Below, piece by piece: positions 42,055 through 51,873 of a DNA stretch of 64,000 nucleotides. Within the stretch, counting starts at the first letter, position 1, and every line of letters begins with the position of its first letter. Source of the stretch: Pseudomonadota bacterium (lineage in GTDB: Bacteria > Bdellovibrionota > Bdellovibrionia > Bdellovibrionales > SG-bin7); NCBI GenBank assembly GCA_034439715.1, contig JAWXAY010000100.1, forward strand, positions 32,001-96,000, read 5' to 3'. The notes under the pieces were generated by a model that saw nothing but the letters and a program-made list of their open reading frames with translations, was not told the origin of the DNA and did not search any database. The position numbers and the translations under genes were made by a program.

Positions 42055-43236
42055 TTGATGCAAAAAGTCCTTTCTATGTCAAAGCTGAAAATCAAGCTGT
42101 CAAAGAGTCTTCGTAAGACCATCATGCGTGGCCACCCATGGGTTTATAAAGAAGCGATTTTGCAACCAGGAATGGTTGAGCGAGCGCAACTTTGCGAAGT
42201 TGCAGATCCTAAGGGCGAGTTTGCCTGGGCAATTTTTGATCCTCATGGCCCGCTTTCTCTTCGTATTTTGAGTACGGCAAAAGCGGCGCCCACAAATATA
42301 TTTTTTGAAAAACGGTTTGTGCGCGCCTTTAATATTAGAAATAGCGTGAGGGCAGAGCACACTAATTCTTATCGTTTATTTAATGGTGAGGGAGATCTTT
42401 TGCCGGGACTTGTTTGTGATATTTATGGACCGGTAGCAGTTTTACAGTTTGACGGACAGGGTCCTAGCGAGTTTTGGGATAAAAAGTTTGTGGCCGACTG
42501 GTTGCTCAGTCGTTCGGGATGTCAAACAGTGATTGAAAAAACTCGGCGGAATACGGAACGAACGACGGAACATATTGCAGGCGATTCGACTGAGAATGAA
42601 GTGCTGATCAAAGAAAATGGCGTTCATTTTAAAGTGAATATCGAAAAGGGTCAAAAGACCGGATTTTTTTTAGATCAAAGAGAGAATCGAAACCACATAC
42701 GTCATTTGTGTGCCGGTAAAAGTGTGTTAAATCTTTTTAGTTATACCGGTGGTTTTTCTGTTTACGCAGGTCTTGGCGGCGCAAAACGAGTGGCAAGCCT
42801 TGATGTATCACGTGGTGCCATCAATATGGCAGAAGAAAACTGGGCGCTTAATGGACTTGATAAATCTAAACACACAGGTCTTTGCGTTGATGTCTTTGAG
42901 TATTTAAATGGCCCACGTGAAATGTGGGACCACATTATTGTGGACCCGCCCTCGATGGGTCATGCCGAAAATCAAAGGGAAATGGCAAAATTAAAATATG
43001 TCGAACTTTTTGCGGCGGCGGCACAACGGGTAAATTCGGGAGGTGCGCTAAGTTTAAGTTCTTGCTCCAGCCATGTTTCATTTAATGATTTTTTTGAAAT
43101 AGTTGATGAGGCCCTTTCAAATTCGCGAAGAACGGGGCAGATCCTGCGAGTGTCGGGTCAGGGCATTGATCATCCCTTTCCCCATGCCTGTCACGAACTT
43201 AGGTATTTAAAGTTCGTGCATTTAGTGCTTGATTAG
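42055..43236 (+). CDS. RlmI-like class I rRNA m5C methyltransferase
   Basis: GHPWVY PUA region, GEGD.LPGL, GQKTGFFLDQR, LNLFSYTGGF, DPP, SCS. Confidence 0.88.
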   Translation: MMQKVLSMSKLKIKLSKSLRKTIMRGHPWVYKEAILQPGMVERAQLCEVADPKGEFAWAIFDPHGPLSLRILSTAKAAPTNIFFEKRFVRAFNIRNSVRAEHTNSYRLFNGEGDLLPGLVCDIYGPVAVLQFDGQGPSEFWDKKFVADWLLSRSGCQTVIEKTRRNTERTTEHIAGDSTENEVLIKENGVHFKVNIEKGQKTGFFLDQRENRNHIRHLCAGKSVLNLFSYTGGFSVYAGLGGAKRVASLDVSRGAINMAEENWALNGLDKSKHTGLCVDVFEYLNGPREMWDHIIVDPPSMGHAENQREMAKLKYVELFAAAAQRVNSGGALSLSSCSSHVSFNDFFEIVDEALSNSRRTGQILRVSGQGIDHPFPHACHELRYLKFVHLVLD

Positions 43237-43382
43237 AGTTTGCAGTCTTAAGAAAGCACCGACGGCAAACAAAGTTGCTGCTACATTACGCCCACTCTTT
43301 CGCAGTGCTTCTTTAAAAAGAAACTGGTACCTTAGAGGCAAATTCACTATTCTTTTTTTAGAGATACCTAAGGGATTTTAAA

Positions 43383-44942
43383 TTGGATCAAGAAATATTT
43401 GAGTGGCTGCTTTTATTAGGTCGATGGCTTCATATCACTGTCGCCATGGCGTGGATTGGCGCTTCATTCTTTTTCATGTGGCTCGATCGTACGCTTCAAA
43501 ATAATGAACTCTGGATGGTCCACGGCGGCGGATTTTACCAAGTTAAAAAACATCTCATGGGTCCGACAAGGGTTCCCAATCATTTGCACTGGTTTAAATG
43601 GGAGTCGTATTGGACCTGGCTCAGCGGACTTTTTTTAGTCATTCTGGTTTTTTATACCGGTAATGGTACTTTTCTTTTAGATTCGTCGGTTTCACAGGTC
43701 ACTTACTGGCAGGCCGTTGGCATAAGTGTGGCATCGATGCTGGTATCCTGGCTGTATTATGATTTTTTATGGGAAAGTAAACTTGCTAAAAATAAACCTA
43801 TAGTTGGGCACTTGCTAACTTTGTTGTGGTTTGTGGGTATGTCTTACTTTTTATGTCATACTCTCAGCGGTAGAGCTGCGTATATTCATGTTGGTGGCAT
43901 GCTTGGTACCTGGATGACCGCTAATGTGTTTTTGCGAATCATTCCTCGTCAACTTAAAATGGTTGAGGCCGCAAAGCTTGGCGAGACGGTAAATCAAGAG
44001 TGGAGCAAGAACGCTAAGAATCGATCGACTCACAATACCTATTTTACCTTACCTGTGATTTTCATAATGCTCAGCAATCACTTTCCGATGACCTATGGTC
44101 ATAACTTCAACTGGCTCATTCTATTAGTTATCAGCGCGGCTGGTGCTGCGATTCGTGAGTATTTTGTAGTTCGTCTGCAAAACCCTATTCGTGCGAAAAT
44201 ATTCGCTGCCGTCGGGGTCGTGTTGATTTTGGGAGTTATGTTTTTTACCAAGCAGAAGACACTTGTTCCCATAGAAACATATTCGGCTAAAGTTTCTGTA
44301 GAAAATCTTGGTCCAACGGCAAATGTTAAAGGTGTTGTAAAGTTTGTAGGACCAGTACCGGTGGGCGAAAAGTTGCAGTTACCATTGGAGTGTAGGCAGG
44401 GCCGCGAGGGCGAGACTTTTTCAAATGAAGTTGTGGTTAATAACGGTAGGATAAAAAATGTACTGATAAGAATCACCAAGGGGCTTGAAGGCAAAGTTTT
44501 TGGCGATGTGCCCGAGACTCCCGTACTCTTGGATCAAATAGATTGTCTCTATGAACCAAGGGTGATTGGTGTTCGAGTTGGCCAAAAAATAGAAATTATT
44601 AATAGTGATTCTTTATTTCACAATGTGCGAGCGCTTACCAAAAACAATGAAGAGTTTAATATTTCAATGCCACAAAAAAACGATCGCTTTACTAAAGTAT
44701 TTATGAAACCCGAAGTATTTTTACAAACAAAGTGTAGTGTACATCCCTGGATGAGTGCCTATATTGCCGTTATAGAACACCCCTTTTTTAGCGTTACTAA
44801 TGATACTGGCGAGTTTTTGATTAAGGATTTACCTTATGGGAACTATGCACTTGAAATTTGGCACGAAGTGTTCGGCGTTCAGACAAAAGAGATATCAGTA
44901 ACTAAAGATCAGGATATTGAGTTTACCTTCAAAAGGGAGTGA
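43383..44942 (+). CDS. puuD: PuuD-type membrane urate oxidase domain fused to a cupredoxin/beta-sandwich C-terminal domain
   Basis: RWLH...AWIG, LWMVHGGGFY, LHWFKWE.Y.TWLSG, SGRAAY.HVG, NV...IIP.Q, RS.HNTY.TLPV...M.SNH; C-terminal HNV...CSVHPWM; no CxxCH. Confidence 0.88.
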   Translation: MDQEIFEWLLLLGRWLHITVAMAWIGASFFFMWLDRTLQNNELWMVHGGGFYQVKKHLMGPTRVPNHLHWFKWESYWTWLSGLFLVILVFYTGNGTFLLDSSVSQVTYWQAVGISVASMLVSWLYYDFLWESKLAKNKPIVGHLLTLLWFVGMSYFLCHTLSGRAAYIHVGGMLGTWMTANVFLRIIPRQLKMVEAAKLGETVNQEWSKNAKNRSTHNTYFTLPVIFIMLSNHFPMTYGHNFNWLILLVISAAGAAIREYFVVRLQNPIRAKIFAAVGVVLILGVMFFTKQKTLVPIETYSAKVSVENLGPTANVKGVVKFVGPVPVGEKLQLPLECRQGREGETFSNEVVVNNGRIKNVLIRITKGLEGKVFGDVPETPVLLDQIDCLYEPRVIGVRVGQKIEIINSDSLFHNVRALTKNNEEFNISMPQKNDRFTKVFMKPEVFLQTKCSVHPWMSAYIAVIEHPFFSVTNDTGEFLIKDLPYGNYALEIWHEVFGVQTKEISVTKDQDIEFTFKRE

Positions 44943-44943
44943 C

Positions 44944-45267
44944 ATGATAAGCACACATATTTTAGACACAAGTAAGGGCGTGCCAGCCGCAGGCATACCC
45001 GTTAAGTTAAGGTTTAGAAATGGGGACTCGTGGGCGGAGTTAGCGGTTGGAAAAACCAACTCTGACGGGCGATGCTCCTTTGAGTGCGAAATTGCTATGG
45101 GCATTTATAAAATTGTTTTTGAGGTGGAAGAATATCTCAAAAAACAAACTAAAGATTATTTTTACTCAAAAGTACCAGTCGTATTTAAGGTAACAGATGT
45201 TGGCCGCAAGTATCACGTGCCACTACTCTTGAATCCGTTTGGCTACTCCACTTATAGAGGTAGCTGA
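44944..45267 (+). CDS. uraH: 5-hydroxyisourate hydrolase (transthyretin-like)
   Basis: STHILD...G.PA, TNSDGR, YHVPLLL.PFGYSTYRGS C-terminal signature. Confidence 0.96.
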   Translation: MISTHILDTSKGVPAAGIPVKLRFRNGDSWAELAVGKTNSDGRCSFECEIAMGIYKIVFEVEEYLKKQTKDYFYSKVPVVFKVTDVGRKYHVPLLLNPFGYSTYRGS

Positions 45268-45306
45268 AATCTGAAAACAAGAGAGATTCCTTACTATCAA
45301 GACTAT

Positions 45307-48300
45307 GTGACAGATGCGTTATTGAATTATTTGAAGCGCGAAAGCCGTCCAGTTGTCGGCGTATCTGAGTTGATGGAAGTCGGAAAAGGAGGAGGACTTG
45401 AGAATAAAGAATCGTTAAAATTTTTGTGTGAATTATACGACCAGCTAAAAGAGAATCTTAATCAAGTTTTAAACCAGAGAAAAACTGATCGTCACTTTAT
45501 CGATCAGCGAACCCGCGCTTGTTATGAGCTCAATAAAAACCTTGGTATCGATTTTATATCTCCTCAATACGAAACAATTATTGGCCATGAGGATGCAAAT
45601 GGCCGAATCGTTATCGGCCCCAAAAATGATTTTTATGCAAAAAGTGGTGGCGGTAAACCTATTGCGCAATTGCCCGATTTTTTACAGGGTCACCACGTGA
45701 CTTTATTTGGTCCGCCAGATGATGCCAAACTTTCTATAAATGCCATGAATGCCTTTTATAGAAAAACCAAGGACGAACCTGAAATCGTATCGGAACTACT
45801 TTCAACCCACTTGAGTAATCCCAAGTGGGGTGCCGACGATGAAGATTCTAAGACGCCACTTAGAGCTGATTTAGTTGCGGCCGGTGAAAATCTTACCAGG
45901 TGTTTTGCTGGCGATCTTGAGTATACCGATCCCAAAACACAAAAAAAATATGCGCTAGAAAAGGGACGACTCGCTCTCCCTATTAAGCGATTCCCGGGTT
46001 TAGCTTTACCCTGTACTTTTCTGCTATATCGAGACAATCCGCTGCCGCTTCACCTTTACGATTTTGCTCTTCATCTTTTTGAGAATTGGCATAACGAACA
46101 AGCGTTATCGTTTTATGTGCCTAAGCTCGAAAATGAAGAAGAGGCCCGATATATTTACTTGATGTGCGACACTGCAGAGGCGATGATTCAAAAACTCCAC
46201 CCCGAGTATAAAAAGGGCGCCATCAGGCTGTTTGTCGTTCTAGAAAATCCTCGGGCGATTTTTCGTGTCAATGAAATCATGGATGCACTTTACCCTTATT
46301 TTGCTGGCGCCTCTCTAGGCTGGCACGATTATTTAAGCTCCGCCGCTCGTTTGTTTAAGAATGATGCTAACTATCGGATTCCTGTTAAAGCTGATCCAGA
46401 TATAGTAATTAAATATATTAAGGCTTCACATGATTTGCTGGCACAGGTTGTTGGTTCGCGTGGTGGAGTCAAAATTGGTGGAATGTACGGCGTTCTGCCA
46501 ATGGATAGTGATCTGTTTAGTCCCTCATACCAAATTGCCATAAAGGGTTTTATAAAAGATGTCGTTACCGAGCTTAAAAGAAATCTCTCAGGTTTTTGGG
46601 TGGCACATCCCGATTTTATTCGGTGTGCACTGGCCATAGTTGAAAGCTGGAAATTTTATCAGTCAGGTGATAAATCAAAACTAGATACCTTGGTCACCTG
46701 CCTTTTAGATAAAAAATACCATAAGGAAATTAGGGAGTTTATCCATGCCCGCGATTTGGCGGGACTCGACGTCAATGACCCGCTCTATGCAAGGTCATTG
46801 ATTGTCGCCGATATTAAAGAATCGACGTTTATTGCCAATAATCATCCCGATGAAATTCGTTACAATGTGTTTCAGTCTCTGCAGTATTTGACGGATTGGT
46901 TAAGTGGCAATGGTTGTGTGGCGTTACCAGCCGAAATAGAGGGTGTGCCGGTACGAGTAATGGATGATTTGGCTACGGCCGAACGCTCCCGGTGGGAGGT
47001 CTGGCATGAGCTGCACCACGGTCGCTTTAATCTAGAGGAATTTTTGAAAATTGCGCATGAAGAGATGATATTTATACGCAAAGATCTTTCGAACTCAAAA
47101 AAAATCGTACAGGTTAAGTGGAATGAGCGGACTGAAAAATGGTACCCAGTGGCCATGAGGCTAATGATTGAACTAATGACTAGCCCGGCGCCAGTTGAAT
47201 TTGCGACTGAGCTTTTAATGTCATTTACAGTGGACTCGATTAGGCAAGAAGCAGATCCTCTTTTGGCATTGAGTAAGATAGATCCCGGCAAACTTGCTTT
47301 GAATTCATATATAGAGCGCTTTAATTACTATTTTTTAATTTGCGGCAATCTTGTTTTTGCAAAGACGATGGCCCAAAATATATCGGTTGATTTAGCGCTG
47401 GCAGAAAAACTTATAAACAACTTTACTTTGGATGAAGTTAAGGCCGCCGCGTATTTTCATGGTGACATTGGCGAGAATAAGAAAACACTTGATGAAATGG
47501 CATCAAATGAGCAGGCGCTGGTGCTGAATGAGGACAATAAAATTAAGTCCGAGTTAGCCGATCTTGGTTTTAAATACCTGCAAAAATTTGGAGTAAAGTT
47601 TTTAATTTCTGCAAAAAACAAATCTGGAAAAGAAATAGTGTCAGCGCTTAGGACGCGCCTCGAAAATACGGCTTCACAAGAATTGATCAATGCCAAGTCT
47701 GCGCTTTGGGAAATTAGCCTTAAGCGATTAAAAACTCAAGCGGAGCAAAGCCTTCATCAGCAAATCGAGAGATTGCGAGCTATGCACAATATTGGAGATG
47801 CCGCAGTCAGTGTTTCATTGCCGGGGGGAAGTGGGCAATTGCTTTGTTTTGGTGGGGCGACCGAGCAAACCTGGTTTCAATATGCGTCTTTAAGTAAAAC
47901 GTTGTCCAGTTGTTTTGCCGTCGAATACTTTCACAATAAAAATATTTCTCTCGATACTCCCGTGGATTCTTTGTTAGAAAAAACAGAATCTGCATTTCGC
48001 ATAAAGTCTGCTGAGGTTACGCTCCGTCACCTTATGAATCACACAGCGCTAAACATGCATTACGTCAACGGAGTGCCAACAGCAGAAAAAATGCCAAATG
48101 TACGTGAGTTGCTTGACCCGATTGTCGTGACCAATGTGCCGGGCACGAGATTTCAGTATTCTGGCGGCGGATTTCTAGTGCTCCAACATCTTATCGAAGC
48201 TTTAGAAGGAAAAACTATTGTTGAGATTACCAAAACGTTTTTTGACAAGTTAGATTTAAAAAATTTAAGCTTTGCACCAGTGCCTGCTCCTAATATGGAA

Positions 48301-49848
48301 AAAATGTTCCCCGCTTTTGCGGCGGGCGTCCTAGGTACTGCCACTGACATGTCGCGATTTTTAGGGTGCCTCACTGGCGCCTATAAATCGTTAGACGGCG
48401 CGGGCCCCATTTCTCATAATACTGCGATAGAGATGTTACACGGTGCAGACGTTGGAAGTTTTAAGTTCATAGGAGCAAAAATGGGGCTCGGTGTTTTTAT
48501 AGCCGAAGCTGGCCCTAATCGCCTCATGTTACATCAGGGCGCGAATGATGGGTTCCGATCGGTTTTTGTTCACTGCTTTGATGGCCCCGATAGCGGCACT
48601 GGGTTTGTGGTGCTGTGCACTGGTGATTTTAATGGGGTCTTGTTTATTTCTGAAGTAGCGCAATTAATATTTAAGGAACTTAACCTAAAAGGTGTCGACA
48701 CAAATAAATTTCTGAATAAATTTGAACTCTTAAATATCCCGCCTGAGGAAGTAGTCAATCGAGCCTATAAAAATTTACTGTTTGATGCCTTTGAGCCAGA
48801 TTTGCCGGAAGTGATCAAACAAAAGGGCCCGCTTGACCCCCTCGCTTCAAAAAATCTCGCCGTAGGCGGTAAAATCGTAGAGACCAGCAATCAAGGCTTT
48901 GCCCGAGCTGAAAATCTTTTATCTCCGCACTTGCCGACATTTGATTCTGAGCTTTATGGCCGTCAAGGAAAAATAATGGATAGCTGGGAATCTGTACGTC
49001 ATAACCCTAATTCAAACGACTATCTCATTTTTGAGTTAAAAAAACCGTCAACAATTTCTCAGGTTTCTCTATCCACAAAATATCACCTCGGGAATCACGC
49101 TGAGGCAGTGGAAATCGAAGGTCTCGACAGTCAAGGGCAGTGGCAGAGAATTATCGCGAAAACTGAGTTAAATGGACATGCCATTAAATTTCTCCTATCG
49201 CTGGCTAATAAATCGATTTTTACGACTATTAAAGTTTCGATGTTTCCTGACGGAGGATTAACCCGATTGGGTCTCTACAAAGATGAGCTCCCGGAACAGC
49301 CAAAAAACCAGATTTTTAGTGAAGGCATTCCTCACACTAATAAGCCGCTCACACCTCAGTTTAAGGGAGCACCACGTTTTTCGTCTGGCATCGAAATAGA
49401 TATTGCCAGCCAGGCTTACGGCGGAAAAATAATTAGTGTGTCGAATCAGCATTATGGTCCGGCTTCTCAAATTATTTCACCCTATCCGCCAATCAACATG
49501 TTCGATGGTTTTGAATCTGCGCGCAGTCGAGAAGCAGATCATTTCGAAGATGTGATTATTGAACTGGGTCGACCCGCAAAAATTAGCCGTATCGAAATAG
49601 ATTTTACCTACTTTAAAAACAATAACCCTCGCGAATTAAGCATAGAGGGATTATCTAAAAATGGCTGGGTTGTTTTAGTGACAAAAACAAACGTCAAAGC
49701 GTATGCCGGTAATGTGGTAGAGTTTAAGCCAAAAAATACAGAGGAGATCAAACAAGTGAAAGTCGTGGTTTTTCCAGATGGCGGAATAAATCGGGTCAAA
49801 GTTTTTACGAGACCAGAGAAGAGACCTGAGAAGGGACCAGCAACATGA
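45307..49848 (+). CDS. Multidomain purine-catabolism protein: malate synthase + OHCU decarboxylase + beta-lactamase-fold serine hydrolase + allantoicase
   Basis: aa ~1-640 ADDED/FYVPKLE/WHDY/WVAHP/MDDLATAE; aa ~670-808 HGDIG/EQA/Y.QKFG..FLI/I...RL; aa ~817-1125 ASLSK/YSGGG/HQG; aa ~1183-1500 two allantoicase repeats (MDSWES.R..FPDGG, DGFESAR..FPDGG). Confidence 0.88.
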   Translation: MTDALLNYLKRESRPVVGVSELMEVGKGGGLENKESLKFLCELYDQLKENLNQVLNQRKTDRHFIDQRTRACYELNKNLGIDFISPQYETIIGHEDANGRIVIGPKNDFYAKSGGGKPIAQLPDFLQGHHVTLFGPPDDAKLSINAMNAFYRKTKDEPEIVSELLSTHLSNPKWGADDEDSKTPLRADLVAAGENLTRCFAGDLEYTDPKTQKKYALEKGRLALPIKRFPGLALPCTFLLYRDNPLPLHLYDFALHLFENWHNEQALSFYVPKLENEEEARYIYLMCDTAEAMIQKLHPEYKKGAIRLFVVLENPRAIFRVNEIMDALYPYFAGASLGWHDYLSSAARLFKNDANYRIPVKADPDIVIKYIKASHDLLAQVVGSRGGVKIGGMYGVLPMDSDLFSPSYQIAIKGFIKDVVTELKRNLSGFWVAHPDFIRCALAIVESWKFYQSGDKSKLDTLVTCLLDKKYHKEIREFIHARDLAGLDVNDPLYARSLIVADIKESTFIANNHPDEIRYNVFQSLQYLTDWLSGNGCVALPAEIEGVPVRVMDDLATAERSRWEVWHELHHGRFNLEEFLKIAHEEMIFIRKDLSNSKKIVQVKWNERTEKWYPVAMRLMIELMTSPAPVEFATELLMSFTVDSIRQEADPLLALSKIDPGKLALNSYIERFNYYFLICGNLVFAKTMAQNISVDLALAEKLINNFTLDEVKAAAYFHGDIGENKKTLDEMASNEQALVLNEDNKIKSELADLGFKYLQKFGVKFLISAKNKSGKEIVSALRTRLENTASQELINAKSALWEISLKRLKTQAEQSLHQQIERLRAMHNIGDAAVSVSLPGGSGQLLCFGGATEQTWFQYASLSKTLSSCFAVEYFHNKNISLDTPVDSLLEKTESAFRIKSAEVTLRHLMNHTALNMHYVNGVPTAEKMPNVRELLDPIVVTNVPGTRFQYSGGGFLVLQHLIEALEGKTIVEITKTFFDKLDLKNLSFAPVPAPNMEKMFPAFAAGVLGTATDMSRFLGCLTGAYKSLDGAGPISHNTAIEMLHGADVGSFKFIGAKMGLGVFIAEAGPNRLMLHQGANDGFRSVFVHCFDGPDSGTGFVVLCTGDFNGVLFISEVAQLIFKELNLKGVDTNKFLNKFELLNIPPEEVVNRAYKNLLFDAFEPDLPEVIKQKGPLDPLASKNLAVGGKIVETSNQGFARAENLLSPHLPTFDSELYGRQGKIMDSWESVRHNPNSNDYLIFELKKPSTISQVSLSTKYHLGNHAEAVEIEGLDSQGQWQRIIAKTELNGHAIKFLLSLANKSIFTTIKVSMFPDGGLTRLGLYKDELPEQPKNQIFSEGIPHTNKPLTPQFKGAPRFSSGIEIDIASQAYGGKIISVSNQHYGPASQIISPYPPINMFDGFESARSREADHFEDVIIELGRPAKISRIEIDFTYFKNNNPRELSIEGLSKNGWVVLVTKTNVKAYAGNVVEFKPKNTEEIKQVKVVVFPDGGINRVKVFTRPEKRPEKGPAT

Positions 49849-50627
49849 AAAAGTTACGGAGGTGGGTGATTAAGGCAGGTAGTAAAATGGTGTGCGATGG
49901 TGGTCCTCTCCTTTTACTGAGTTGGATGCGGCAAGTTGATGAGTTAAGACGCAAACATAAAATCGAAGTTATTTGGGTGACTTCAGGAGCCATTTCCTGG
50001 GCTGTGAATCGCACCAAGTTTAAAAAACTGAATCGTAAACTTCAGCAAAAGCAGGCACTAAGTGCCATTGGGCAACCGTTGGTAATGGAACAGTATAATC
50101 TGGCCCTTCATAAATTAAACCTATTGGGCTCTCAGGTTTTGTTAACAGCGGGAGACATGCGAGATCGCACTCGGCGGAGAAATTTACAAAATACGCTCAA
50201 TGAAATCTTACGCTGGAAGGTCACTCCAATACTCAATGAAAATGATGCTGTTGCCACCGAAGAAATCCAGTTTGGTGACAATGATTCATTGGCCTCGCAA
50301 GTAGCCATCATGATGAAAGCCGAACGTTTGGTATTGATGACGGATGTAGACGGTCTTTTCGATGATGATCCCAAAAAGAATAAGAGAGCTAAGTTGATCA
50401 ATTATCGGCGCCGAATTAGTAAAGTAGACCTTCGCTTAGCTCGCAAAAAATCTAAATCTCTGCAAGGCACGGGCGGAATGTTTTCAAAACTTTTGGCTGT
50501 CCGTAGAGCGAGTCGCTCAGGTGTCGTCTGCCATTTGGTGCGTGGTGACTCTCCTAAAAATCTGTTAGAGATTGCCTCTGACCGGTCGGTCGGCACTCAA
50601 ATAGGTGGACTCTATGAAAACAAATAG
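49845..50627 (+). CDS. proB: Glutamate 5-kinase (no PUA domain)
   Basis: VIKAGS, VTSGA, AIGQ, NEND, FGDND.LA, GTGGM.SK. Confidence 0.95.
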   Translation: MKKLRRWVIKAGSKMVCDGGPLLLLSWMRQVDELRRKHKIEVIWVTSGAISWAVNRTKFKKLNRKLQQKQALSAIGQPLVMEQYNLALHKLNLLGSQVLLTAGDMRDRTRRRNLQNTLNEILRWKVTPILNENDAVATEEIQFGDNDSLASQVAIMMKAERLVLMTDVDGLFDDDPKKNKRAKLINYRRRISKVDLRLARKKSKSLQGTGGMFSKLLAVRRASRSGVVCHLVRGDSPKNLLEIASDRSVGTQIGGLYENK

Positions 50628-51873
50628 CGAAATGGAGCAGGCGCTCGTGTCTCTCCGCCAAGGAAACCGTCAGCTGCGAGGATTAAGTGCTGCGCGAAAA
50701 AACAAAACGTTAATAAAACTAGCAGAGATTATAGAAAGCGAAGCTCCGACAATTTTGAGCGCAAATCTCATTGATCTAAAACAGCTACCCAAAGACACAA
50801 CAGCCGCATTTCGTGACCGACTTGCGCTAGATCAAGACCGTGTGTTGGCTATGGTGCAAAGTCTGAGGGAAGTGGCAAACCTCACTGATCCCGTCGGTGA
50901 AGTCATCGATGAAAAAACTCTTTCTAATAATTTAAGACTGAAGCGGGTGCGTTCTCCTTTGGGTCTTATCTTTATGATTTTTGAGTCCCGACCAAACGTG
51001 ATTCTTGAGGCCTTTTCGCTCGCATTTAAATCCGGGAATTCAATAATACTTCGCGGCGGGTCAGACTCAGGCGCCACGAGCAAAGTAATTTATGGGTTAA
51101 TGGCTAATGCCCTTTCAGAAAGTGGCGTGGAGTTTTCGGTATTCTATGGCTTGCAAGATTATGACCGAGGCATCGTCGAGAATTTGCTAAAAAGAAAAAA
51201 TCTTATCGATGTCGTTGTTCCGAGAGGTGGAGAAAAATTAATAGATTTTGTGCAGAGTCATGCTCTTATGCCAATTATTAAAAATGATCGTGGTCTATGC
51301 CATACCTATGTAGACGAAGACGCCGATCTCGAAATGGCGGTGCGAATTGTAGCAAATGCAAAAACTCAGAGGCCCGGTGTGTGTAACGCTCTAGAGACAG
51401 TTCTCGTTCACCAAAATTGCGCTAAGGATTTTATTCCTAAGCTTTACCAGGCAACCGAATCCGTAAAATTAACCTGGCGAGTGGACCAGGCGAGCCTAAG
51501 TATTTTAAAAAATGAATCACGTGTACAGTTGGCTTCGCCAGCGGATTGGGATACAGAGTATCTTGATCTTATCATGAATTGTCGTATTGTTTCTAATTTG
51601 GATAGCGCCATTGAGCATATTGAGCGACACGGCTCAAAACACTCCGAAGCCATTGTGACAAGTTCTGAAAAAAAAGCTCGGAATTTTCAAAATGAGGTCG
51701 ATGCGGCGGCCGTTTATTGGAATGCTTCGACTCGATTTACAGATGGTTTTGAGTTTGGTTTGGGGGGCGAGCTTGGTATTAGCACTCAAAAAATTCACGT
51801 GCGGGGACCGGTTGGACTTCGCGAATTAACTACTCCCCGCTGGATTATCGATGGCGACGGGCAAGTTCGGTAA
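50605..51873 (+). CDS. proA: Gamma-glutamyl phosphate reductase
   Basis: FESRPNV, PRGG, VCNALET, NASTRFTDG, GISTQK.HVRGP.GL; start may be ATG 50614. Confidence 0.96.
   Translation: MDSMKTNSEMEQALVSLRQGNRQLRGLSAARKNKTLIKLAEIIESEAPTILSANLIDLKQLPKDTTAAFRDRLALDQDRVLAMVQSLREVANLTDPVGEVIDEKTLSNNLRLKRVRSPLGLIFMIFESRPNVILEAFSLAFKSGNSIILRGGSDSGATSKVIYGLMANALSESGVEFSVFYGLQDYDRGIVENLLKRKNLIDVVVPRGGEKLIDFVQSHALMPIIKNDRGLCHTYVDEDADLEMAVRIVANAKTQRPGVCNALETVLVHQNCAKDFIPKLYQATESVKLTWRVDQASLSILKNESRVQLASPADWDTEYLDLIMNCRIVSNLDSAIEHIERHGSKHSEAIVTSSEKKARNFQNEVDAAAVYWNASTRFTDGFEFGLGGELGISTQKIHVRGPVGLRELTTPRWIIDGDGQVR

Follow-up and report, generated by a model that had tools for sequence, protein, structure and literature searches.

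A PuuD-family membrane protein of Bdellovibrionota with a predicted type-1 copper domain in the position of cytochrome c

Introduction

Which carrier takes up the electrons of urate oxidation when a protein of the PuuD family has no cytochrome c? This question is raised by a 519-amino-acid open reading frame in a Bdellovibrionota genome (GCA_034439715.1, 95.7% complete), located on contig JAWXAY010000100.1, of which a stretch of 64,000 nt (hereafter the window) was analyzed. Among Gram-negative bacteria the main urate oxidase is PuuD, which has never been purified (Doniselli et al., 2015; PMC4562309). In the description of this enzyme the cytochrome is argued to be essential since it is always present, although its role in electron transfer is itself a deduction and azide gave no specific inhibition (PMC4562309). 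A first-pass annotation of the window had proposed that in the present protein the electron-acceptor module was swapped from heme to copper, giving a copper-dependent urate dehydrogenase. Here, we describe the protein, its operon, and the distribution of its C-terminal domain, and discuss the alternative roles this domain may have.

Gene structure and membrane domain

The features of the locus are given in Table 1. In a Pfam scan of the complete protein, the match to Urate_ox_N covers profile positions 3-292 of 295, and an AlphaFold model of the reading frame (mean pLDDT 83.9, with a low-confidence linker and an all-beta tail) has 8 long helices within aa 3-289; the first-pass assignment of aa ~1-290 to the multi-spanning domain of PuuD thus stands. 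As had also been noted there, the protein lacks the CxxCH motif of haem c, and the motif is likewise absent from 120 out of 120 close homologues. These are the best 120 of 5,740, with identities of 60-100% over 98-100% of its length; since they were chosen by full-length score, they inform on conservation and not on frequency. Those bearing a name belong to the Bdellovibrionota. Two contigs from different runs, both possibly from the source of this DNA, span positions 43000-45600 of the window with zero differences, so that the fusion is not a misjoin; together with the full-length homologues, these unbroken contigs rule out an assembly chimera. A promoter and terminator scan 5' of puuD gave nothing usable.

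Table 1. Features of the puuD locus (positions in the window).
Feature	Position	Strand	Remarks
puuD, copper-type	43383..44942	+	519-aa ORF, TTG start, AGGGA-like ribosome site just 5'
DUF989/Urate_ox_N membrane domain, aa 5-287	43395..44243	+	Pfam 342 bits, E 3e-102; 8 predicted helices
Variable linker, aa ~290-311	44250..44315	+	predicted flexible; mean conservation 0.25 vs 0.64-0.82 elsewhere; pLDDT ~54
Transthyretin-like (carboxypeptidase-regulatory-like) sandwich, N-terminal half, aa ~312-377	44316..44513	+	invariant C337; 5aq0 alignment
Cupredoxin domain, aa ~378-466	44514..44780	+	predicted type-1 site H413 (codon at 44619), C451 (44733), H454 (44742), M457 (44751); N414; invariant C388
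Transthyretin-like sandwich, C-terminal half, aa 467-519	44781..44939	+	invariant H494-E495; CarboxypepD_reg E 5e-5, below cut-off
uraH, 5-hydroxyisourate hydrolase	44944..45267	+	1 base past puuD stop; TIGR02962 128.8 bits, cut-off 87.45
Fusion of malate-synthase-like, OHCU decarboxylase (UraD), beta-lactamase-like and allantoicase domains, 1513 aa	45307..49848	+	Pfam, NCBIfam

Conservation of the membrane domain was tabulated for 132 sequences, 85 of them haem-type. Residues invariant in haem, copper and tail-less PuuD alike include R14, H17, H47, H69, R164, M178, M229, H233, and R258, while 5 positions were found to be diagnostic between copper-type and haem-type membrane domains. We know of no cofactor or relay in the DUF989 domain. 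A relation to HemJ, and with it the idea of a haem b, found no support (profile comparison probability 0.8%, E 0.07, 21 columns), and neither a relative of solved structure detectable by sequence nor a usable Atlas match was found for this domain. Lys and Arg are concentrated in the loops after helices 1, 3, 5, and 7, with almost none after helices 2, 4, and 6. These loop charges and the 8 helices fit the N-out/C-out topology model of PMC4562309, in which the tail would be periplasmic; the signal-peptide-like starts of free-standing homologues, read by eye, agree with such a location.

A predicted cupredoxin inserted into a transthyretin-like sandwich

Residues H413, C451, H454, and M457 are present where the first-pass annotation had placed them, and in sequence alignments they fall on H53, C92, H95, and M98, the copper ligands of amicyanin, as the names of its mutant entries also indicate. 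When aa 301-519 were shuffled 100,000 times, the pattern H-N-x(30-45)-C-x2-H-x2-M arose once, and the only one of the 2,815 genome ORFs of at least 150 aa to contain it is copper-type puuD. All four ligands are invariant in the 120 homologues, as are N414, C337, C388, H494, and E495, against a mean conservation of 0.64-0.75 for the module. The invariant Cys pair C337/C388, which the earlier annotation did not mention, could form a disulfide. Comparison of 8 sequence pairs indicates that the module is under purifying selection (pN 0.08-0.18, pS 0.65-0.83).

When modelled alone, the tail reaches a pLDDT of 96.4. The predicted model matches electron-transfer cupredoxins at Z 11-13 with rmsd 1.6-2.1 across 82-96 residues, and Foldseek agrees. 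In VIA-align the leading matches are effectively tied: the tethered cupredoxin of the Thermus nitrite reductase NirK (6hbe; Z 12.8, rmsd 1.9, 96 aligned), plastocyanin (1b3i; Z 12.0), a Nitrosopumilus cupredoxin (Z ~12.0), and amicyanin (1aac; Z 11.6). The transthyretin-like domain of carboxypeptidase D (5aq0) also aligns with model residues 313-519 (Z 9.9-10.4, rmsd 2.1), and because this match spans the entire tail with only ~78 aligned residues, the cupredoxin is inserted into the sandwich. The first-pass annotation had described a soluble beta domain followed by a sandwich; both parts are there, but the cupredoxin sits inside the sandwich, whose halves are aa ~312-377 and ~467-519. A function of this sandwich as 5-hydroxyisourate hydrolase was rejected, as the fold match (Z 8.0-8.7) is all that speaks for it and a separate uraH exists.

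The first-pass annotation had proposed a profile scan for Urate_ox_N and for a cupredoxin or MauL family. The former was recovered; the amicyanin family TIGR02657 gave 17 bits (E 0.006) against a cut-off of 110.2, so that the tail does not qualify as a member. Carboxypeptidase-regulatory-like Pfam matches were weak and below cut-off, and no family named MauL occurred among the Pfam and NCBIfam matches of the protein, a comparison made by family names alone. From ligands and model together, aa ~378-466 are likely a type-1 cupredoxin with the complete amicyanin-type ligand set.

Purine degradation and respiration in the host genome

The gene directly behind puuD encodes the next enzyme of urate degradation, and this arrangement is common: uraH lies beside 31 of 35 copper-type loci, and the four-part fusion gene with UraD and allantoicase is found near haem, copper, and tail-less puuD alike. 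The host genome contains one full PuuD, XdhB and XdhC above cut-off, XdhA just below it, and an adenine deaminase. Uricase (PF01014) was found in none of 401 genomes of the phylum including the host, while 3 of 14 control genomes were positive. None of the host's 5 flavoprotein candidates for HpxO scored above the cut-off, which no control genome passed either. Oxidation of urate by the copper-type protein is suggested by the lack of a detected uricase, by the adjacent uraH and uraD, and by the Agrobacterium puuD knock-out reported in PMC4562309.

The cytochrome c oxidase subunits CoxA and CoxB of the host are above cut-off. Haem c is evidently available to this organism: CoxB carries CxxCH, as do 55 ORFs in total (many of them not cytochromes), and multihaem and alternative-complex-III-like genes as well as a CcsB-like gene (160 bits, below the cut-off of 187.6) are present. 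As the host makes haem c, a swap forced by its absence is ruled out. The first-pass annotation had regarded a separately encoded cytochrome c, if consistently required, as evidence against its reading; no such gene was seen beside puuD in 13 tail-less loci, where the sole CxxCH match is an alcohol-dehydrogenase-like ORF.

Several further observations concern the neighborhood and the host. In the 1513-aa fusion, the beta-lactamase-like part, in which SxxK is present, occupies the place of allantoinase in the pathway order, and none of the 7 amidohydrolase and 3 deacetylase candidates in the host genome reached the cut-off for an AllB or PuuE allantoinase; the domain is a candidate non-homologous allantoinase. 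proB- and proA-like genes (window 49845-51873, plus strand) overlap the end of the fusion gene, a link that is absent from the 13 related loci listed and is therefore probably local. Elsewhere in the host genome, a short DUF989-type gene (L172:6102-7120, corresponding to G000:C22:30101-31119) has an apparent frameshift near an A run at ~L172:6450. A small cytochrome c ORF with CxxCH comes next, and the two may be a split pair of DUF989 and cytochrome.

Distribution of haem, copper, and absent tails

The 401 genomes of the phylum were surveyed for PuuD at a score of at least about 95 bits, which gave 95 genes in 94 genomes; 4 N-terminal halves of split genes and short DUF989-like matches below 65 bits, including 228 unlisted ones, were set aside. 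The copper module was present in 58 of these 95 genes and a cytochrome c in 23; 12 genes have no tail, and the remaining 2 are truncated at contig ends. For the haem and tail-less classes the assignment was made on the DNA itself, and so it was for roughly half of the copper class, the others being assigned from in-frame coordinates. In every full-length gene read, haem and copper tails are mutually exclusive. The haem tails of the tree set all have CxxCH and a Met 25-50 residues downstream (85/85), and the copper module shares position and linker with them. The first-pass idea of a swapped acceptor module is borne out insofar as the cupredoxin fills the place of the cytochrome c and the two exclude each other; that the change went from haem to copper, and by direct exchange, is an inference, the trees being unrooted.

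Outside the phylum, the best 80 of more than 600 candidate loci include one from Acidobacteria and one labelled Lysobacteraceae with the copper module, and the other 66 are haem-type. In the Lysobacteraceae-labelled contig (L033), the copper-type puuD lies in an operon of Bdellovibrionota type, and the contig is either part of a mislabelled bin or the result of horizontal transfer. Two copper-type genes, L044 and L130, lie outside purine operons. The former is the last of a series of genes for a transporter and for glutamine-synthetase-like, dehydrogenase, and amidotransferase-like proteins (L044:1287-7680; identified by eye from ORF starts), and no uraH lies nearby. The latter is a divergent copper-type gene without purine genes nearby in a genome (G270) that also contains a haem-type puuD in a purine operon (L129/L130 pair), and it may act on another substrate. 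In a further genome (G212, L126:4354-5984), copper-type puuD lies in two overlapping frames near residue 113, by a frameshift or an assembly error.

Phylogeny of the membrane domain and of the module

In a quick, unrooted IQ-TREE tree of 132 membrane domains, all 35 copper forms and 5 tail-less forms lie on one side of a branch with an SH-aLRT support of 93 (95 without the long branch L130), while the other 7 tail-less forms are a separate group (SH-aLRT 99). In the tree of the modules, 26 fused copies group (support 95), and among them fall two proteins from short contigs, probably fragments. The simplest reading of these unrooted trees would be that the fusion arose once and the tail was later lost at least twice. 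An origin of the fused module from the phylum's own ctaA-linked free-standing copies is unsupported, since these form a clade of their own that is not the direct sister of the fused modules.

PuuD without a tail

The tail-less proteins end cleanly after helix 7 or 8, and the next gene begins immediately. They retain the core residues that are invariant across the family, and 8 of the 12 loci are in purine operons with uraH. Selection on them is purifying, with pN 0.05-0.19 against pS 0.57-0.87 in 4 pairs, a ratio that is imprecise because synonymous sites are near saturation. Four genomes that are 97-99% complete (G306, G348, G066, and G133) contain uraH and a tail-less PuuD; neither a uricase, nor HpxO above cut-off, nor the module was found in them, apart from one weak match of 132 aa in G133. 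The tail-less forms among the 95 genes and these four genomes together argue that a tethered carrier is not universally needed. The argument from an invariant cytochrome in PMC4562309 fails in view of the tail-less forms. The epithet "copper-dependent" of the first-pass annotation is likewise overstated, because tail-less PuuD, 5 of them inside the copper clade, keep the core residues under a pN far below pS.

These observations bear on an alternative that we consider unlikely but worth weighing, namely that the copper module is a real redox centre with an accessory function. The membrane domain would then oxidize urate and deliver the electrons to the quinone pool or to a soluble carrier in the periplasm, and the tail would only tune the rate or scavenge superoxide. 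Tail-less forms that arose at least twice within the copper clade and once more as a separate clade, and that stayed conserved in purine operons, speak for it, and PMC4562309 raises the possibility that the cytochrome serves instead to scavenge superoxide. Against this, a tail is retained in 81 of 93 classifiable genes, its ligands are invariant, and the module is itself under purifying selection. In family f16, moreover, all 8 tail-less genomes encode the module as a separate protein, which could act in trans, although 24 of 34 f16 genomes overall do so, with or without PuuD.

The free-standing module family

Outside PuuD, the module is known from exported proteins annotated as "carboxypeptidase regulatory-like domain / plastocyanin" in Acidobacteriota, Planctomycetota, Nitrospirota, Omnitrophota, and other phyla. 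They resemble the tail over the whole module (32-49% identity) with the four ligands kept, and differ in being free-standing with a signal-peptide-like start, as read by eye. Proteins of 220-280 aa consisting of the module only occur in records of Omnitrophota, Latescibacterota, Gemmatimonadota, and Planctomycetota, and module-only Atlas clusters, none of them named, in Acidobacteriota, Nitrospirota, and Planctomycetota. The full ligand motif is kept in all 42 free-standing sequences of the module tree.

In Bdellovibrionota the free-standing copies mostly lie beside genes of oxidase assembly. Of 19 such loci examined in this phylum, all from kin genomes, 16 have ctaA and ctaB, and 14 have in addition an ABC permease and sco1; neighbors were checked by Pfam in L154 and by BLAST for the rest. 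In L153-L170 (families f16 and f28) the module gene comes first and is directly followed by an ORF for a small membrane protein, then ctaA, ctaB, an ABC transporter, and sco1. Gene neighborhood thus suggests that the free-standing family is connected with haem-copper oxidases, either as an electron carrier or in their assembly; on a side reading, the free-standing module would belong, still without a name, to a gene cluster for the biogenesis of cytochrome oxidase.

Discussion

The protein resembles PuuD of Agrobacterium fabrum (Atu2314; COG3748; DUF989/PF06181) in its 8-helix DUF989 domain, variable linker, C-terminal redox-type domain, and linkage to uraH/uraD, and both genomes lack a detected uricase; it differs in a ~210-aa cupredoxin-in-sandwich module in place of the CxxCH cytochrome c (Doniselli et al., 2015; PMC4562309). 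As a cytochrome c with CxxCH and axial Met is absent, it is not a PuuD as originally defined, although it likely works like one. Since the membrane domain persists without it, the copper module is most plausibly an exchangeable carrier and not the catalytic centre. That its task is electron transfer is argued from what haem and copper cofactors have in common.

We hold with moderate confidence that this PuuD-family protein oxidizes urate and passes the electrons to its tethered, predicted type-1 copper domain and from there to the respiratory chain. Urate from xanthine dehydrogenase would be oxidized to 5-hydroxyisourate at the cytoplasmic face of the membrane domain, near UraH and UraD, and the electrons would cross to a periplasmic copper centre on a flexible tether. 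As one-electron acceptor, this centre would replace the cytochrome c of classical PuuD and hand the electrons to the cytochrome c oxidase of the host; routing them into respiration would avoid H2O2.

A reversed flow, in which PuuD would be an O2-using hydroxylase that reduces O2 to water as urate is hydroxylated, with the tail as electron donor, seems improbable to us. Urate has a one-electron potential above that of typical blue-copper sites, which counts for a donor; on the other hand, a one-electron carrier of high potential in the periplasm is poorly suited to reduce O2 for its activation at the cytoplasmic face. Tethered cupredoxins of nitrite reductases, which are donors, are among the closest structural matches, but the best sequence matches include amicyanin, the acceptor for a dehydrogenase. 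Databases label the family "urate hydroxylase," yet the membrane domain showed no motif for an oxygen-activating cofactor. PMC4562309 reports classical PuuD without detectable H2O2 and from aerobes only, which fits either direction.

That the module is a copper chaperone or store loading a metal site is highly improbable: while the oxidase-assembly neighborhood of the free-standing copies, the match to the cupredoxin-fold chaperone CupA (Z 9.8), and the invariant His and Met of the membrane domain speak for it, each module takes the place of one cytochrome c, whose haem could not deliver copper, the type-1 His/Cys/His/Met set is complete in 120/120 fused and 42/42 free-standing sequences, electron-transfer cupredoxins match better (Z 11.4-12.8), and the 5 positions that separate copper-type from haem-type membrane domains include no His, Met, or Cys.

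The module resembles amicyanin of Paracoccus in fold (rmsd 1.9 over 86 residues), in the short C-x2-H-x2-M loop, and in the upstream His-Asn, but it is ~22% identical, inserted into a sandwich, tethered to a membrane enzyme, and equipped with one more pair of invariant Cys. Other systems are known in which haem c and cupredoxin can substitute for each other as carriers, so that the surprise is moderate. Copper nitrite reductases provide a precedent for such an exchange (PMC13324648), with a fused partner that is either a cupredoxin (NirK of Thermus scotoductus, 6hbe) or a cytochrome c (Ralstonia pickettii), although these are soluble reductases with an unrelated catalytic core, in which the tether is a donor. 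The same source cautions that the tethered partner of NirK is not always the working redox partner (PMC13324648).

Copper-type PuuD is a real and conserved protein, and apparently a variant new to the literature. No copper or tail-less PuuD was found described in the literature covered, which consisted of papers outside subscription; supplement 2 of PMC4562309 may list such genes, its supplement 1 has 0 mentions of copper or plastocyanin, and no PuuD variant appears in the passages considered of PMC13751858 and PMC12186688. The automatic JGI label "uncharacterized membrane protein/plastocyanin" already captures the architecture.

The tail-less forms show the membrane domain to be the conserved core of the family. 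Minimal PuuD proteins of 300 aa, and a soluble, predicted copper domain that should report by its color and is free of haem c maturation, offer handles for experiments, and the fused protein is the first clue to what the unnamed, widespread family of cupredoxins may do. A wider reading is possible, though we put it forward tentatively: the DUF989 domain may be a self-contained urate dehydrogenase with plug-in carriers, which would be haem c in most bacteria, blue copper (commonest in Bdellovibrionota), or, in tail-less lineages, a carrier in trans, and the module may be the first to which a task can be assigned within a large family of periplasmic cupredoxin-in-sandwich proteins feeding haem-copper oxidases. 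Free-standing genes among ctaA, ctaB, and sco1 fit copper delivery equally well. If this wider reading is true, predatory bacteria would burn the purines of their prey through a copper wire into respiration.
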